Shown here: piece after piece, positions 4,243 to 44,500 of the stretch | How positions within the stretch are numbered: the first letter of the stretch is position 1 | Layout of the letters: each line of letters opens with the position of its first letter | Assembly: GCF_003334255.1 (NCBI RefSeq) | Contig: NZ_QOWU01000022.1 | Length of the DNA stretch: 64,000 nt | Strand: one strand, 5' to 3' | From: Escherichia coli | Lineage (GTDB): Bacteria > Pseudomonadota > Gammaproteobacteria > Enterobacterales > Enterobacteriaceae | Position numbers and translations under genes: made by a program | Notes under the pieces: model-generated | What the model saw: only the letters and a program-made list of their open reading frames with translations | The model's database searches: none | Told to the model about the DNA's origin: nothing

Positions 4243-5742
4243 ATGAGTAAACACGACACCGACACTTCAGATCAACACGCCGCGAAACGCCGCTGGCTTA
4301 ATGCCCACGAAGAGGGGTATCACAAAGCGATGGGCAATCGCCAGGTACAGATGATTGCCATTGGCGGCGCGATTGGCACCGGCTTGTTTTTAGGCGCGGG
4401 AGCCCGACTGCAAATGGCGGGGCCAGCACTGGCACTGGTCTATTTGATCTGCGGCCTGTTTTCATTTTTTATTCTGCGTGCATTGGGTGAGCTGGTGTTA
4501 CATCGCCCTTCCAGTGGCAGCTTTGTTTCTTATGCCCGTGAGTTTTTGGGTGAGAAAGCCGCTTACGTTGCTGGCTGGATGTACTTCATCAACTGGGCGA
4601 TGACGGGGATTGTTGATATTACCGCTGTAGCGCTGTATATGCATTACTGGGGGGCGTTTGGCGGCGTGCCGCAGTGGGTCTTTGCGCTCGCTGCGCTGAC
4701 CATCGTTGGCACCATGAATATGATCGGTGTGAAATGGTTTGCGGAGATGGAGTTCTGGTTTGCGCTTATTAAAGTGCTCGCCATTGTGACCTTTTTGGTC
4801 GTGGGTACAGTGTTCCTCGGTAGCGGTCAGCCGCTGGATGGCAACACCACTGGCTTTCATTTAATTACCGATAACGGCGGCTTCTTCCCCCACGGTTTGC
4901 TGCCTGCGCTGGTGTTGATTCAGGGCGTAGTGTTTGCTTTTGCCTCCATTGAAATGGTGGGTACAGCTGCCGGAGAATGTAAAGATCCGCAGACCATGGT
5001 GCCTAAAGCGATTAACAGTGTGATTTGGCGTATTGGCCTGTTTTACGTCGGCTCCGTGGTGTTGCTGGTTATGTTATTGCCGTGGAGCGCGTATCAGGCG
5101 GGGCAAAGTCCGTTCGTGACGTTTTTCTCTAAACTGGGTGTGCCGTACATCGGCAGCATTATGAACATTGTGGTGCTGACCGCTGCCCTCTCCAGCCTGA
5201 ACTCAGGTCTGTACTGCACCGGACGTATTCTGCGCTCGATGGCGATGGGCGGTTCCGCACCGAGTTTTATGGCGAAAATGAGTCGTCAGCATGTGCCGTA
5301 TGCCGGGATTCTGGCGACACTGGTTGTGTATGTCGTCGGCGTATTCCTCAACTATCTGGTGCCGTCGCGCGTATTTGAGATTGTGTTGAACTTCGCGTCG
5401 CTGGGAATCATCGCTTCATGGGCGTTTATCATCGTGTGCCAGATGCGCCTGCGTAAAGCGATTAAAGAAGGCAAAGCAGCGGATGTCAGTTTTAAACTGC
5501 CTGGCGCGCCCTTCACTTCCTGGCTGACATTACTGTTTTTACTGAGTGTCCTTGTGCTGATGGCGTTCGATTACCCGAACGGGACTTATACTATCGCGGC
5601 GCTGCCGATTATCGGTATTCTGCTGGTTATAGGCTGGTTTGGTGTGCGCAAACGTGTTGCTGAAATTCACAGCACTGCGCCAGTCGTCGAGGAAGATGAA
5701 GAAAAACAGGAAATTGAGTTTAAACCTGAAACGGCGAGTTAA
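4243..5742 (+). CDS. ansP: L-asparagine permease AnsP (499 aa)
   Basis: ORF 4192..5742 trimmed to ATG at 4243 (MSKHDTDTSDQ...) with GGGAG SD; APC-family amino-acid permease signature. Confidence 0.9.
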   Translation: MSKHDTDTSDQHAAKRRWLNAHEEGYHKAMGNRQVQMIAIGGAIGTGLFLGAGARLQMAGPALALVYLICGLFSFFILRALGELVLHRPSSGSFVSYAREFLGEKAAYVAGWMYFINWAMTGIVDITAVALYMHYWGAFGGVPQWVFALAALTIVGTMNMIGVKWFAEMEFWFALIKVLAIVTFLVVGTVFLGSGQPLDGNTTGFHLITDNGGFFPHGLLPALVLIQGVVFAFASIEMVGTAAGECKDPQTMVPKAINSVIWRIGLFYVGSVVLLVMLLPWSAYQAGQSPFVTFFSKLGVPYIGSIMNIVVLTAALSSLNSGLYCTGRILRSMAMGGSAPSFMAKMSRQHVPYAGILATLVVYVVGVFLNYLVPSRVFEIVLNFASLGIIASWAFIIVCQMRLRKAIKEGKAADVSFKLPGAPFTSWLTLLFLLSVLVLMAFDYPNGTYTIAALPIIGILLVIGWFGVRKRVAEIHSTAPVVEEDEEKQEIEFKPETAS

Positions 5743-5796
5743 TTGCAAAATTGCCCGGCTACGTGCCGGGCAAATTGAAGGTGCTCTTTACTTCAT

Positions 5797-5830
5797 GCCG
5801 GATGCGGCGCAAGCGCCTTATCCGGCCTAC
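5797..5830. repeat. REP (repetitive extragenic palindromic) element
   Basis: gccggatgcggcgcaagcgccttatccggcctac between convergent ansP and yncE. Confidence 0.5.
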
Positions 5831-5854
5831 GAAAGACAAACTCCCCCATATCTA

Positions 5855-6916
5855 TTACAGCGCAATACGAATCACATCGTCCGGCTGGGTAGCTTCCTGC
5901 TGTTTAGTGGATTTTTGTTTCACACTGACATACAACGTTTTGCCATCGGCAGACAGCGCCAGGCTGTTCGGATGAGTCGGCGTATCGAACGTTTTCACCA
6001 CTTTATAGCTTTTCGCGTCAATCACACTGACTTTACCTGCCTGACGATGCGTTACGTAAGCTTCATTACGCGCGGGGTTAAACAGCACAGCCAGTGATTC
6101 CGGTGCCGCAACCTTCGCCAGAATATTGCCATTACGGGTATCGACCACTAACACTTCTGCCGCTTTAGAATCGGTGATAAATGCACGCTGCCTGGCGGTA
6201 TCAAGGCTGATGTTGATAAAGAAGTGCTCTTTGCCGTCATCCACCAGCTTTTTACGGCTGAGGATTTTATTGTCGGCGGTGTCGATGGTAATCAATTCGC
6301 CGTCAGCGTTAGTGGTGTAAAGACGTTTGCCTTTGCTATCCAACGCCAGACCGGTACTCATTTTACCGGTGTTCTGGATGGCGGTTTTCAGTTTGATATT
6401 CTCGCCATCAACGACCCAAATCACGCTCTCTTTACCAATACCACTGATGTAAACGGTGTTCGTGGCATCGTCAGCTACCAGCTCACGCGGTTGCAGCGGG
6501 CGCACCTCTTCCGTGCGCTTACGATCATCCAGCACCAGACGACCTTTCACCTCGCCCGTTTTGGCATCTATCGCCGTGACCGCACTGTTTACGGTGTTAC
6601 CAAACCACAACGTCTGAGTCGTGTTATTGATGGTGGCACCAAACGGCTTGAGATCGTTATGGATCGCCTGCGTCACTTCCAGAGTGACCGGATCAAGACG
6701 ATAAACCACACCACCTTTATCCAGTTTGCGGCTTTGCGAAGTGGCGAGCCACAGCGCGTTTTCTTGCTGGCTATAAGCCATTTCGTAGGCACCTTTACCT
6801 ACCGCTTTACGCAGCATTTCTTCTGCGGCCTGCGTACTGAATGATGAAGCAACAAGCAATGAACCTAACAGTAATGAACCACGCAGGCGCGATGAAAACA
6901 GATGACGTAAATGCAT
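5855..6916 (-). CDS. yncE: Periplasmic beta-propeller protein YncE (353 aa)
   Basis: ORF track; signal peptide (MHLRHLFSSRLRGSLLLGSLLVASSFSTQA) followed by repeated beta-propeller blades; divergent from yncD. Confidence 0.85.
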   Translation of the reverse strand: MHLRHLFSSRLRGSLLLGSLLVASSFSTQAAEEMLRKAVGKGAYEMAYSQQENALWLATSQSRKLDKGGVVYRLDPVTLEVTQAIHNDLKPFGATINNTTQTLWFGNTVNSAVTAIDAKTGEVKGRLVLDDRKRTEEVRPLQPRELVADDATNTVYISGIGKESVIWVVDGENIKLKTAIQNTGKMSTGLALDSKGKRLYTTNADGELITIDTADNKILSRKKLVDDGKEHFFINISLDTARQRAFITDSKAAEVLVVDTRNGNILAKVAAPESLAVLFNPARNEAYVTHRQAGKVSVIDAKSYKVVKTFDTPTHPNSLALSADGKTLYVSVKQKSTKQQEATQPDDVIRIAL

Positions 6917-7001
6917 GACGACTCCCTTTGATGAACCGATATTTTTGCTGCTTCACAATGCTTCGCTAAGCGTAATCATCGTTACGCTCTTGTTATAAAT
7001 G

Positions 7002-7022
7002 GGAATGGTAATCATTATTTTC
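7002..7022. promoter_or_regulatory. Candidate Fur box in the yncE-yncD divergent promoter region
   Basis: gaatggtaatcattatttt resembles the Fur consensus GATAATGATAATCATTATC; lies between a TonB-dependent receptor gene and yncE. Confidence 0.35.
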
Positions 7023-7157
7023 TCAAATGTGGAGCATTTCTTGCCGTTACGACTACAATTTTCTCAATTACTTAACGTATCGTGCCGTTTCGTTTTCCAT
7101 AAATTTACAATTTCATTACCATAACGGCGTTTTCCCATTCTTAACCTGGCTTTTTTC

Positions 7158-9260
7158 ATGAAGATTTTTTCCGTCCGACAGACCGTTTTGCCCGCACTAC
7201 TTGCCCTTTCCCCCGTTGTTTTTGCCGCTGATGAACAGACCATGATTGTCAGTGCCGCACCGCAGGTGGTTTCAGAACTGGATACCCCAGCAGCAGTAAG
7301 CGTGGTGGATGGCGAGGAGATGCGCCTGGCAACACCGCGCATTAACTTGTCCGAATCACTGACCAGCGTGCCTGGTTTGCAGGTACAAAATCGGCAGAAC
7401 TATGCGCAAGATTTACAGCTGTCGATTCGCGGATTTGGCTCCCGCTCCACTTACGGAATTCGCGGTATTCGCCTGTATGTGGACGGTATTCCCGCTACCA
7501 TGCCCGACGGGCAAGGGCAAACATCCAACATCGATTTAAGCAGTGTGCAAAATGTGGAAGTGCTGCGTGGCCCCTTCTCTGCCCTGTATGGCAACGCGTC
7601 TGGCGGTGTAATGAATGTCACCACCCAGACCGGGCAACAGCCACCAACCATTGAAGCCAGCAGTTACTACGGCAGTTTTGGCAGCTGGCGCTATGGGCTC
7701 AAAGCAACGGGTGCAACGGGCGACGGCACACAGCCCGGCGATGTCGATTACACCGTCTCAACCACGCGTTTTACGACCCACGGCTATCGTGACCATAGTG
7801 GCGCACAGAAAAATTTAGCTAATGCCAAACTGGGCGTACGCATTGATGACGCCAGCAAATTAAGCCTGATTTTCAATAGCGTGGATATCAAAGCAGATGA
7901 CCCTGGTGGGCTAACCAAAGCAGAATGGAAAGCGAATCCGCAACAAGCGCCACGCGCTGAACAATACGACACGCGAAAAACCATCAAGCAAACTCAGGCT
8001 GGGTTGTGCTATGAACGTAGCCTGAGTTCGCGGGATGATATGAGTGTGATGATGTATGCCGGAGAGCGAGAAACGACCCAGTACCAGTCAATACCCATGG
8101 CACCACAACTTAACCCGTCACATGCGGGCGGCGTGATTACCCTGCAACGCCATTACCAGGGAATAGACAGCCGCTGGACACACCGTGGTGAACTGGGCGT
8201 TCCGGTCACGTTCACTACCGGCCTGAACTACGAAAACATGAGTGAAAACCGCAAGGGCTACAATAACTTCCGCCTGAATAGCGGCATGCCGGAGTACGGG
8301 CAAAAAGGTGAGTTGCGTCGCGACGAACGCAATCTGATGTGGAACATCGATCCCTATTTACAGACGCAGTGGCAGCTGAGCGAAAAACTGTCGCTGGATG
8401 CTGGCGTGCGCTACAGCTCCGTGTGGTTTGATTCCAACGACCATTACATTACTCCGGGTAACGGCGATGACAGCGGTGATGCCAGTTATCACAAATGGCT
8501 ACCAGCCGGATCGTTAAAATATGCAATGACCGATGCCTGGAATATCTATCTGGCAGCCGGGCGTGGTTTTGAAACGCCGACGATTAATGAGCTGTCTTAT
8601 CGGGCTGATGGGCAAAGCGGTATGAACTTTGGTTTAAAACCATCCACCAACGATACAATTGAGATCGGCAGTAAAACGCGTATTGGTGATGGGCTGCTTA
8701 GTCTCGCATTGTTCCAGACCGACACCGATGATGAAATTGTTGTCGATAGCAGTAGCGGTGGGCGTACGACTTACAAAAATGCTGGAAAGACCCGTCGTCA
8801 AGGCGCTGAACTGGCATGGGATCAACGTTTCGCGGGAGATTTTCGCGTAAACGCGTCCTGGACCTGGCTTGATGCGACCTATCGCAGCAATGTTTGCAAT
8901 GAACAGGATTGTAACGGTAATCGGATGCCTGGGATCGCCCGTAATATGGGCTTTGCGTCGATAGGTTATGTACCGGAAGATGGCTGGTATGCAGGCACGG
9001 AAGCGCGTTATATGGGCGATATTATGGCAGATGATGAAAATACGGCCAAGGCGCCGTCTTATACTCTCATCGGCTTATTCACCGGGTATAAATACAATTA
9101 CCACAATTTAACTGTGGATTTATTTGGTCGTGTCGATAATTTATTCGATAAAGAATACGTTGGTTCTGTCATTGTCAATGAGTCAAACGGGCGATATTAC
9201 GAACCTGCGCCCGGGCGAAATTATGGTGTCGGCGTGAATATCGCATGGCGATTTGAGTAA
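7158..9260 (+). CDS. yncD: TonB-dependent outer-membrane receptor YncD (700 aa)
   Basis: ORF track; signal peptide, plug domain and C-terminal aromatic residue (…AWRFE) typical of TonB-dependent receptors. Confidence 0.9.
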   Translation: MKIFSVRQTVLPALLALSPVVFAADEQTMIVSAAPQVVSELDTPAAVSVVDGEEMRLATPRINLSESLTSVPGLQVQNRQNYAQDLQLSIRGFGSRSTYGIRGIRLYVDGIPATMPDGQGQTSNIDLSSVQNVEVLRGPFSALYGNASGGVMNVTTQTGQQPPTIEASSYYGSFGSWRYGLKATGATGDGTQPGDVDYTVSTTRFTTHGYRDHSGAQKNLANAKLGVRIDDASKLSLIFNSVDIKADDPGGLTKAEWKANPQQAPRAEQYDTRKTIKQTQAGLCYERSLSSRDDMSVMMYAGERETTQYQSIPMAPQLNPSHAGGVITLQRHYQGIDSRWTHRGELGVPVTFTTGLNYENMSENRKGYNNFRLNSGMPEYGQKGELRRDERNLMWNIDPYLQTQWQLSEKLSLDAGVRYSSVWFDSNDHYITPGNGDDSGDASYHKWLPAGSLKYAMTDAWNIYLAAGRGFETPTINELSYRADGQSGMNFGLKPSTNDTIEIGSKTRIGDGLLSLALFQTDTDDEIVVDSSSGGRTTYKNAGKTRRQGAELAWDQRFAGDFRVNASWTWLDATYRSNVCNEQDCNGNRMPGIARNMGFASIGYVPEDGWYAGTEARYMGDIMADDENTAKAPSYTLIGLFTGYKYNYHNLTVDLFGRVDNLFDKEYVGSVIVNESNGRYYEPAPGRNYGVGVNIAWRFE

Positions 9261-9267
9261 TTACCTT

Positions 9268-9292
9268 GATGCCCGGTATTTGCCGGGCATTT
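9268..9292. terminator. Bidirectional hairpin terminator between yncD and mcbR
   Basis: atgcccggtatttgccgggcat inverted repeat followed by T-rich tract; lies between convergent stops. Confidence 0.5.
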
Positions 9293-9295
9293 ACT

Positions 9296-9961
9296 TTAAC
9301 GATTGTATTGCTGGTATAAAATAGCAATATTTTGTTGCATAATTTCAGCAAGACAATGTCTGCATCCCTCTTTGTCTTTTGCTTTTAACGCAGCGAGTAA
9401 CAGATGATAGTTTTCTATATGCTCCCGTAATTCCGCTGGATTAATCGCTTCATAGAGATAATGTAAACCAGGTCCCATCCTGACCCACAGTTGCTCAATC
9501 ATCTCACACAGGATGGGCATATTTGAGCGATGATAAATCGCTAAGCGAAATAGCCTGTTTACATTAATGATTTGTTCCATGTCGCCCTTTTCTTGCGCCT
9601 GCTGTAATTTCTCGAGCAATTCCTGGAGTTCCGCCAGGTCTTGCGGGGTGAGGTTTTCAACAGCCAGAGCAACTGCCATTAATTCCAGTTCGTAGCGGAT
9701 CCGATTGATTTCGTCTAATTGACGTTTCCCCACTTCCGGAACTGTAAATGCTTGCGCTGGTGCGACAGAAAGCGCATTCACCGAAACCAGACGTAATAAT
9801 GCTTCACGCACAGGTGTAATACTCATACCTAATTGCTCCGCCAGATTTTTAGTAATCAGGCGTGCGCCAGGTTTTAGTGCGCCAATACTAAGCTGATGTT
9901 TCAGGTCGTTCTCAACCTGCAGAGTCAAACTGACATGTTTCATTTTTTCCGTTCCAGGCAT
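9296..9961 (-). CDS. mcbR: GntR/FadR-family transcriptional regulator McbR (YncC, 221 aa)
   Basis: ORF 9296..10018 trimmed to ATG at 9961 (MPGTEKMKHVSLTLQ...); N-terminal winged helix-turn-helix (HTH). Confidence 0.85.
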   Translation of the reverse strand: MPGTEKMKHVSLTLQVENDLKHQLSIGALKPGARLITKNLAEQLGMSITPVREALLRLVSVNALSVAPAQAFTVPEVGKRQLDEINRIRYELELMAVALAVENLTPQDLAELQELLEKLQQAQEKGDMEQIINVNRLFRLAIYHRSNMPILCEMIEQLWVRMGPGLHYLYEAINPAELREHIENYHLLLAALKAKDKEGCRHCLAEIMQQNIAILYQQYNR

Positions 9962-41502: not shown

Positions 41503-44500
41503 TTAACCGCTAATCTGTTCCATCGCCTGCAAAATACGCTTATCTGAAATCGGATAAGGCGTACCAAGTTGTTGAGCGAAGTAACTAACGCGCAGCTCTT
41601 CTATCATCCAACGGATCTCTTTCACGTCTTCATCCTCACGACGTGCGGGCGGCAGTTTGTTGATCCATTGCTGCCACGCCTGCTGGACGTTTTCGACTTT
41701 CAGCATCTGTGCACGATCGCGATGTGGATCAACCGCCAGTTTTTCCAGTCGTTTTTCAATCGCCTGCAAATATCGCAGCGTGTCGCCCAGCCGTTTGAAG
41801 CCGTTACCAGTGACAAAACCGCGATATACCAATCCGCCCATCTGCGCTTTAATGTCAGAAAGCCCCAGTGCCATGGTCATATCCACCCGCCCTTTCAGAC
41901 GTTTGTTGATATTGAACACCGCAGTGAGGATTTGCTCGACCTGCTTCGCAATATCCACCACCGTGTCATTCAGTTCGGCGCGCACTTTTTCATGCAGCGC
42001 AGCAAAGCCTTCTTCCGTCCAGACCGGGCCACCATTGGCGTCGATCAATTTATCCACACCGCAGGAGATACAGTCGTCGATCAGCTCCAGCACTTTGCCA
42101 TACGGGTTAAAGTACAGCCCCAGCTTGGCTTTGTTTGGCAACTTCTCATGCAAATATTTGATTGGCGAGGGAATATTCAGCAGCAGTAGACGGCGAAGAC
42201 CGTTCCACATTGCCTGCTTTTGCTCCAGCGGGTTATCAAACAGTTTGATCGCCACACTGTCGCGTTCATCCACTAGCGCTGGCCACGCCTTCACTTTGTA
42301 GTTGCCACGCTTCTGTTCGTAGCTTTCCGGCAGTTGCCCAAAGCTCCAGATATGCAGCCCGCTCTGCTCGATACCGTCATCCGCCACCGCAGACAGCGTT
42401 TCCTGCACTTTGCCTTTCAGGGCGTCTTTCAGATCCTGTAATGAGCGCCCTTCTTTTAGCTTCTTATTTTTGTCGTCCACCACGCGGAAGGTGATTTTTA
42501 GGTGATCGGGCACCTGATCCCAGTGCCAGTCTTCGCGGTCAACGGTAACGCCGGTCATCCGCCGTAACTCGCGCTCAAGGCTGTCAAGCAACGGTAACTC
42601 CAGCGGTGTGACGCGGCCTAAAAACGCTTCGGCATAGTTTGGCGCAGGTACAAAATTACGGCGTACCGGTTTCGGCAACGATTTAATCAGAGCAATCACC
42701 AGTTCGCGGCGCAGACCGGGGATCTGCCATTCAAACCCGCTCTCCTCAACCTGGTTAAGTAACGGCAGCGGAATATGTACGGTCACACCGTCAGCATCCG
42801 CGCCGGGCTCAAACTGATAGCTCAAACGCAGCTTGAGATTGCCCTGATGCCAGAAGTTCGGGTAATCCAGCTTGCTGATTTTTTCCGCCCCTTCTTTGAT
42901 CAACATGCTCTTTTCAAAGTTGAGCAAATCAGGCGTTTCGCGGCTGACTTTTTTCCACCAGCTGTCGAAGTGGCGTGCAGAGATCACATCATGGCTGATG
43001 CGCTGGTCGTAGAACTCAAACAACGTTTCGTCATCAACCAGAATATCGCGGCGACGTGATTTGTGTTCCAGCTCTTCCACTTCGGCCCGCAGTTTCAGGT
43101 TTTCACGGAAGAATGCGTGACGAGTCTGCCAGTCACCTTCCACCAGCGCGTGGCGAATAAAGAGTTCACGACATAACGCCGGATCAATCTGGCTGTAGTT
43201 GACCTTGCGCGCGGCAACAATCGGCAAGCCATAAACAGTGACTTTTTCCGTTGCCATCACCGCGCCCTGCGCCCGTTCCCAGTGCGGTTCGCTGTAGGTG
43301 CGTTTAATCAAATGCTGAGCAACTGGCTCCACCCATTCCGGGTCGATGCGCGCAGCAATGCGCCCCCACAGGCGGCTGGTTTCTACCAGTTCCGCCACCA
43401 TTACCCATTTCGGCGGTTTTTTGAATAAACCAGAACCGGGGAAGATGGAGAAACGCGCGTTACGTGCGCCGGTATATTCTTGTTTATCGGCATCTTTCAT
43501 GCCGATATGGGAAAGCAAACCCGTCAGCAACGCAATGTGAATTTCGCGATACTCCGCCGGTTCGCTGTTAACCGGAATGCCAAGTTCTTTCACCACCTGA
43601 CGCAACTGGGTGTAGATATCCTGCCATTCGCGCACGCGCAGATAGTTGAGATAATCGGTGCGGCACAGGCGACGGAAAGCGTTTGAAGAGAGCGCCTTTT
43701 GCTGCTCGCCGAGATAATTCCACAGATTCACAAACGCGAGGAAGTCGGATTCTTTGTCGTGGAAGCGACGATGTTTTTCGTCCGATGCCTGCTGTTTATC
43801 CATCGGACGCTCGCGCGGATCCTGAATGGAGAGCGCGGACGTGATAATCATCGCCTCACGCACGCAGCCATGTTTTTGCGCTTCCAGCACCATACGCGCC
43901 AAACGTGGGTCGACAGGCAACTGCGAGAGCTGGCGACCGAGCGGCGTCAGTTTATAGGCGCTGACCTGTTCATCAGTGGTGATCGCGCCCAGTTCTTCGA
44001 GCAGACGCACGCCATCCTGGATATTGCGTTTATCCGGTGCTTCGACAAACGGGAACGCCGCGATATCGCCCAGCCCCAGCGCGGTCATCTGCAAAATAAC
44101 CGATGCCAGGTTGGTACGCAGAATCTCCGGATCGGTAAACTCCGGGCGCGAGAGGAAATCGTCTTCGGAATAGAGACGAATACAGATCCCTTCGGACACA
44201 CGACCACAGCGGCCTTTACGCTGATTGGCAGACGCCTGGGAAATCGGCTCAATCGGCAAACGCTGCACTTTGGTGCGATAGCTGTAGCGGCTGATACGCG
44301 CCGTACCGGGGTCGATAACGTATTTAATCCCCGGTACGGTCAGCGAGGTTTCCGCGACGTTGGTCGCCAGCACAATGCGTCGCCCGCTGTGCGACTGGAA
44401 CACGCGGTTCTGTTCGCTATTCGAAAGCCGCGCATAAAGCGGCAAGATTTCGGTATGGCGTAAGTTCAGCTTGTTCAGCGCATCGGCGGTATCGCGGATT

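Follow-up and report, generated by a model that had tools for sequence, protein, structure and literature searches.

Does the Fur-box-like sequence in the spacer between the divergent Escherichia coli genes yncE and yncD serve as an operator, and if so, to which of the two genes does it belong? The original prediction placed a sequence close to the Fur consensus in this spacer and proposed iron-responsive control of one or both genes, in keeping with the TonB-dependent receptor encoded next to it. The locus lies in a 64-kb stretch of DNA that is referred to below as the window. Bases 5700-9400 of the window are E. coli chromosome, 100% identical to several complete E. coli genomes, and carry the RefSeq annotation of ansP, yncE, pqqU (the present name of yncD) and mcbR. 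The two genes of interest are transcribed divergently, and their start codons flank a spacer of 241 bp (6917-7157):

5855-6916, minus strand: yncE coding sequence (open reading frame and RefSeq annotation), 353 aa, a periplasmic seven-bladed beta-propeller protein
7158-9260, plus strand: pqqU (yncD) coding sequence (open reading frame and annotation), 700 aa, a TonB-dependent importer of pyrroloquinoline quinone (PQQ)

The yncE-pqqU spacer was found in 5412 of 5426 complete E. coli genomes. Its sequence, box included, is identical between the laboratory strains MG1655 and W3110, from which the window differs at positions 7081, 7092 and 7123 only.

The presence of a Fur-consensus-like sequence in the spacer was readily confirmed. 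The sequence gaatggtaatcattatttt occurs once in the window, at 7003-7021, and the best register of the match is 7001-7019. The elements of the box are as follows:

7001-7019, near-palindromic and readable on either strand: primary Fur box, GGGAATGGTAATCATTATT, recognized by consensus match, matrix score and conservation
6995-7013: second Fur register, ATAAATGGGAATGGTAATC, offset by 6 bp and overlapping the primary box, 13.2 bits
7009-7016: TAATCATT, a segment inside the primary Fur box

Compared with the consensus GATAATGATAATCATTATC, the primary box matches at 15 of 19 positions on the plus strand and at 14 of 19 on the minus strand, the former being the joint-highest consensus match in the 64-kb window. 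Together, the primary box and the second register form an AT-rich array of 25 bp (6995-7019), with hexamers in the layout F-F-x-R (GGGAAT GGTAAT C ATTATT). An offset of 6 bp is typical of Fur hexamer arrays. A consensus search that allowed at most three mismatches returned no match; the yncE site has four, and this setting was too strict. The other 15/19 match, at 58261-58279 in the ydbA/BigA pseudogene region, falls outside the 15 best matrix matches, all of which reach at least 9.5 bits, and mismatch counting alone is therefore not discriminating.

The Fur matrix was derived from 20 MG1655 spacers located 5' of well-established Fur-repressed genes (fhuA, fepA-fes, fepD-entS, fepB-entC, fiu, fhuE, tonB, yddA, sufA, ydiE, cirA, mntH, nrdH, exbB, nfeF, feoA, ryhB, fecA, fecI and fhuF), the yncE locus being left out. 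Consensus-seeded iteration with one site per sequence yielded a matrix of 16.9 bits; as its seed was the textbook consensus, the motif is only partly de novo. With this matrix, the weight-matrix check that the original prediction called for gave a clear answer: the sequence at 7001-7019 is a real site of median strength, its score of 16.13 bits exceeding those of 10 of the 20 training sites in leave-one-out scoring (range 6.3-22.7) and ranking second among the approximately 128,000 position-strands of the window. Under the window composition, the exact score distribution gives a probability of 1.5e-6 per position for such a score, or about 0.2-0.3 matches expected per 64 kb; under the AT-rich composition of the spacer itself, 0.0038 matches are expected per 241 bp, and when the spacer was shuffled 5000 times with its dinucleotides preserved, 0.38% of the shuffles attained 16.13 bits (P ~0.004 per spacer). 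On the strength of the matrix score, the shuffles and the expected counts, the Fur-box match is well beyond chance.

Occupancy of the site by Fur in vivo can be assessed from a published survey of nine strains that combines ChIP-exo peaks with RNA-seq of fur deletions (Gao et al., 2023; PMC10164565). The W3110 peak at NC_007779.1 1524928-1524940 maps exactly to positions 6997-7009 of the window. The MG1655 peak at 1521238-1521250, reported in older coordinates, maps to approximately 6998-7010 with a shift between the old and new coordinates of 1975 bp, a value deduced from known IS insertions with an error of perhaps ~2 bp. Both peaks fall inside the 25-bp array at 6995-7019. The ChIP-exo peak of strain W is likewise assigned to yncE (Gao et al., 2023; PMC10164565), and an independent study found Fur binding upstream of yncE by ChIP.

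The MG1655 peaks were read after allowing for a one-row lag of the labels: in the MG1655 sheet of Dataset 2 of PMC10164565, the gene and locus-tag columns run one row behind the coordinates from P37 on, such that acnA stands as the label of the peak in the tonB region, and adhP as that of the peak in the yncE spacer; any reuse of the sheet calls for realignment. The same data contain a second MG1655 ChIP-exo interval, 1520944-1520980, which corresponds to approximately 7268-7304 inside pqqU, is labelled intragenic yncD and is absent from an earlier study. A matrix scan of this interval found no Fur-like motif, the nearest match scoring 9.2 bits at 7238-7256.

Published expression data for fur mutants, the second check named by the original prediction, bear it out for yncE in eight strains. 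Loss of fur increases yncE expression by a log2 value of 3.1 in MG1655 and 8.1 in W3110, six more strains lying between 3.6 and 5.5 (Gao et al., 2023; PMC10164565). These values correspond to a 9-fold to ~280-fold derepression. A fur mutant overproduces the YncE protein, as seen by western blot. The first reports of this regulation are said to be those of McHugh in 2003 and Baba-Dikwa in 2008. Further literature calls yncE Fur-repressed with reference to McHugh (2003), and yncE figures as a Fur target in the ChIP-exo studies (Seo, 2014; Gao et al., 2023) and in two other publications (Beauchene, 2015; Moriel, 2016). One source describes the yncE Fur box as lacking annotation in RegulonDB, and no in vitro Fur footprint of the site was found in the accessible literature.

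Sequence match, in vivo occupancy, Fur-dependent expression and conservation (see below), the second and third of these from published work, thus come together at this site, an ordinary E. coli Fur operator already reported by genome-wide studies. The locus is the same as the published yncE Fur target: the box is identical in MG1655 and W3110, and the peaks lie on 6995-7019. Like the classical Fur boxes of fhuA, fepA-fes, fepB-entC, cirA, fiu and fhuF, it consists of a 19-bp near-palindrome within a hexamer array, has a mid-range matrix score, would lie over the core promoter if that is predicted correctly, is bound in vivo under iron-replete conditions and is relieved by fur deletion. It differs from the idealised consensus by its four mismatches and, unlike the classical iron-uptake promoters, it precedes a gene whose product is not known to take part in iron uptake.

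The evolutionary conservation of the box was traced by a YncE protein scan in one genome per species, which yielded 80 loci from ~25 genera of Enterobacteriaceae; 78 of these, with at least 140 nt of upstream sequence, were used for counting the core. All 78 carry the core TAATGATT[AG]YYATTC upstream of yncE. In 75 of them, the distance from the core to the yncE ATG is 95-105 nt; in the other three (L048, L054 and L057, Pseudescherichia vulneris and two related loci), where the leader hairpin described below is missing, it is 56-60 nt. In a genera-level spacer alignment of 24 sequences, with a mean column identity of 60%, the invariant columns cluster at 7000-7017, which is the longest invariant block in the spacer. 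Within E. coli, 5008 of 5413 records agree in all of the 41 bp that include the predicted -35 hexamer of yncE and the box; for the neighbouring 41 bp, the number is 3515 of 5413. Nine Citrobacter loci are of particular use here, as pqqU is missing within 2.5 kb of their yncE:

Loci of Citrobacter spp. without pqqU: L026, L027, L030, L031, L034, L036, L037, L042 and L095

In all nine, the box and the predicted promoter are kept at the same distance from yncE, and homology with the remaining genomes sets in ~15 nt upstream of the predicted -35. In the type strain of Escherichia albertii (L022), a match to PqqU residues 25-56 only was detected upstream of yncE, which suggests a pqqU remnant.

The Fur box belongs to yncE, not to pqqU, because it is retained at a fixed distance in 78 genomes, including the nine without pqqU, because the pqqU-proximal half of the spacer contains no conserved Fur-like site, because pqqU is flat in the MG1655 fur deletion, and because the box centre is nearer to the yncE ATG (93 bp) than to the pqqU ATG (148 bp, the box as a whole spanning 139-157 bp from the latter). 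The pqqU promoter was also searched for a Fur site of its own, and none was accepted: the best that the window offers is 7.4 bits at 7102-7120, and among 67 genomes the pqqU-proximal 120 bp perform no better than shuffled sequence, with a median best score of 2.8 bits vs 3.7 for the shuffles.

Accordingly, of the proposed iron control of one or both genes, the part that concerns yncE stands, on ChIP-exo and fur-deletion data, whereas pqqU does not respond in MG1655 and rises only in W3110 and 042. The argument from the neighbouring TonB-dependent receptor is outdated. YncD is PqqU, which imports PQQ and does not transport iron, and which reviews of the MG1655 data describe as neither iron- nor Fur-regulated; the promoter of pqqU in Pseudomonas aeruginosa likewise shows no response to iron. 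Since PqqU imports PQQ, the presence of a TonB-dependent receptor next to the box is no evidence for iron control, a warning that applies to the reading of such neighbourhoods.

The strain-dependent response of pqqU nevertheless leaves some room for a reading in which the one Fur array serves both genes as a bidirectional operator and also lowers pqqU transcription when Fur is fully active. This reading draws on the fur deletion of W3110, in which pqqU rises 7.7-fold (log2 2.95, p = 2.7e-51), and on that of 042, with a 4-fold increase (log2 2.0), as well as on the assignment of the W3110 ChIP-exo peak to both yncE and pqqU (Gao et al., 2023; PMC10164565). The spacers of MG1655 and W3110 being identical, it would further fit that the values of both genes are already high in wild-type MG1655, where incomplete repression by Fur could mask an effect. 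However, pqqU is unchanged in MG1655 (log2 0.12, p = 0.39, not significant) and is listed as a Fur target in only two of the nine strains, W3110 and 042 (Gao et al., 2023; PMC10164565). The distance of the box from pqqU, the absence of any conserved Fur-like sequence from the 120 bp nearest to pqqU, the retention of the box where pqqU is absent, the reviews that place YncD outside Fur and iron regulation and the iron-insensitive promoter in P. aeruginosa all speak against it as well. The arrangement known from fepA-fes, in which Fur controls the two divergent genes alike and a Fur site lies within reach of either promoter, was not found at this locus; unlike in fepA-fes and fepB-entC, only one arm of the yncE/pqqU pair is reliably regulated. 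A shared operator is thus possible but doubtful. Should the yncE operator dampen pqqU when Fur is fully active, which can be put forward only tentatively, PQQ uptake would be iron-responsive in some strains or conditions (~8-fold in W3110, 4-fold in 042), contradicting the description of YncD/PqqU as not Fur-regulated.

With the box assigned to yncE, the manner of repression depends on where the yncE promoter lies. Conservation and spacing point to the following hexamers:

7005-7010, minus strand: predicted -10 of yncE, TACCAT (TACTAT or TATTAT in other genera)
7028-7033, minus strand: predicted -35 of yncE, TCCACA, part of the near-invariant CTCCAC

The pattern T-A-Y-Y-A-T is kept in 78 of 78 loci at a constant distance of 17 nt from TCCAC(A/T), with variable sequence between the two, and CTCCAC is nearly invariant in the same columns of all 78. 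These features are indicative of a sigma-70 promoter of yncE with a predicted start at ~6998. A simple sigma-70 scan did not call this minus-strand promoter, which matches at 8 of 12 positions against a threshold of 9 of 12; the sole candidate of that scan lies on the plus strand at 6952-6979. The predicted -10 is overlapped by the Fur box, whose position relative to the core promoter depends on this prediction. From the two hexamers and the start at ~6998, we infer a geometry of occlusion, and the array at 6995-7019 is very probably the Fur operator of the yncE promoter, which would act by classical repression through occlusion of the -10. When iron is sufficient, dimers of Fe2+-Fur would occupy the overlapping hexamers of the array and cover the predicted -10 along with part of the promoter spacer, the predicted -35 being located at 7028-7033, so that RNA polymerase would be excluded and yncE repressed. 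When iron is scarce, Fur would be released and yncE transcribed, whereupon RyhB, a small RNA under Fur control, would probably raise yncE translation via a complementary site in the leader.

A different geometry follows if the yncE start is placed at ~7038. The Fur box would then be at approximately +19 to +37, and Fur would act as a roadblock or block early elongation, while a marbox-like element further upstream would be placed at -41.5 as a class II activator site:

7070-7089, read on the minus strand: marbox-like element, AACGGCACGATACGTTAAGT (consensus AYnGCACnnWnnRYYAAAY)

RegulonDB, as quoted elsewhere, lists a MarA site at -41.5 of yncEp; the roadblock geometry requires this site to be assigned to the element at 7070-7089, which resembles a marbox well, as no other stretch of the spacer does, and is conserved between genera. 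On the other hand, no recognisable -10 is present near 7045-7050, a stretch that varies in both sequence and length between genera, whereas the constant 17-bp spacing between TCCAC(A/T) and TAYYAT favours the downstream promoter, and the Citrobacter loci that lost the marbox region retain only the downstream module. The MarA annotation itself is given as low-confidence, and Reg-Seq did not recover the MarA site. The Fur box is compatible with repression under either start geometry, but a roadblock is less likely than occlusion of the -10 because conservation is lacking in the region where its own -10 would have to be; on the whole, we consider it improbable. That the block is conserved merely as a promoter element or as the site of another factor, its likeness to a Fur box being coincidental and without function, is hardly credible: the invariant core does overlap the predicted -10, which would be conserved anyway, but Fur ChIP-exo peaks fall exactly on the block in several strains, yncE is strongly derepressed in fur deletions, the matrix score is that of a median bona fide site, and 18 bp are conserved, far more than a 6-bp hexamer.

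The marbox-like element is found between yncE and pqqU in most genera and is lost in the Citrobacter loci without pqqU. The difference between the window and K-12 at position 7081 falls inside it. A search of the accessible literature for a link between yncE and a marbox retrieved no paper.

Occlusion of the -10 by Fur may not be the only iron input to yncE, as two further elements are conserved in its predicted 5' leader:

6969-6988, minus strand: stem-loop AGCGTAA-CGATGA-TTACGCT, predicted by RNAalifold
6947-6966, minus strand: leader motif GCGAAGCATTGTGAAGCAGC, complementary to RyhB nt ~40-62, candidate pairing site

In the RNAalifold analysis of 23 genera-level sequences, the stem comprises 7 bp, every pair of which shows at least two compensatory double changes, and the loop is conserved as C/G-N-ATGA; the stem-loop is located just upstream of the motif at 6947-6966. 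A plus-strand scan marked the same segment as terminator-like. The stem-loop is deleted in P. vulneris and the two related loci mentioned above.

The leader motif, in the form GGAAGCnATGTG, is conserved across genera, and its complementarity to RyhB reaches 12 contiguous pairs in Salmonella and Kluyvera. The duplex calculation with full-length RyhB and the leader was uninformative, 6.8% of the shuffles being equally good, and an analysis restricted to the RyhB core was used in its place. The RyhB core pairs with the leaders with a mean duplex energy of -22.9 kcal/mol, compared with -13.4 for shuffled cores and a best shuffled mean of -20.4. Taken together with the published finding that RyhB raises expression of a yncE-lacZ translational fusion, these results point to a second, post-transcriptional iron input to yncE that is probably exerted through RyhB, with 6947-6966 as a candidate site of direct RyhB pairing in the activation of yncE. 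No published mapping of a RyhB pairing site on yncE was found. The combination resembles that of cirA and shiA, in which Fur represses transcription and RyhB activates translation: yncE is bound by Fur upstream and its translation is raised by RyhB, and its RyhB-complementary leader motif is conserved, although at yncE the pairing site is a candidate from computed complementarity, and activation through it is hypothetical. If pqqU is indeed included, the Fur box, the leader hairpin and the RyhB pairing site would make the yncE-pqqU spacer a compact, multi-layer iron switch.

With respect to what was known, the present analysis refines the annotation of the locus. The operator is placed to the base over the predicted -10, is assigned to yncE rather than to pqqU, and is seen to have stayed with yncE across the family Enterobacteriaceae, also at loci that have lost pqqU. 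As yncE is already an established Fur target, the significance goes little beyond correct annotation; the strain-dependent response of pqqU and the conserved leader elements are small leads. YncE has been studied as a vaccine antigen that is expressed under iron limitation.

The strongest Fur-matrix match in the window is found elsewhere, at 44719-44737 on the plus strand (GGAAGTGATAATGATTTTT, 21.7 bits), within the hrpA coding sequence (41503-45405, minus strand) at about codon 223. Expression of hrpA is unchanged in fur deletions, and an intragenic hrpA ChIP-exo peak of Fur has been reported in strains W and KO11FL under iron starvation (Gao et al., 2023; PMC10164565); its distance of ~37 kb from the peak at yncE agrees with the position of the match. 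Strain G1/2 (L099) is identical to the window over 5700-9400 and is in register with it still at 44.7 kb. A position-by-position comparison of 14428-64000 with this strain gave 4369 mismatches over these last 49.6 kb, and an indel or a divergent segment must therefore be present somewhere downstream.
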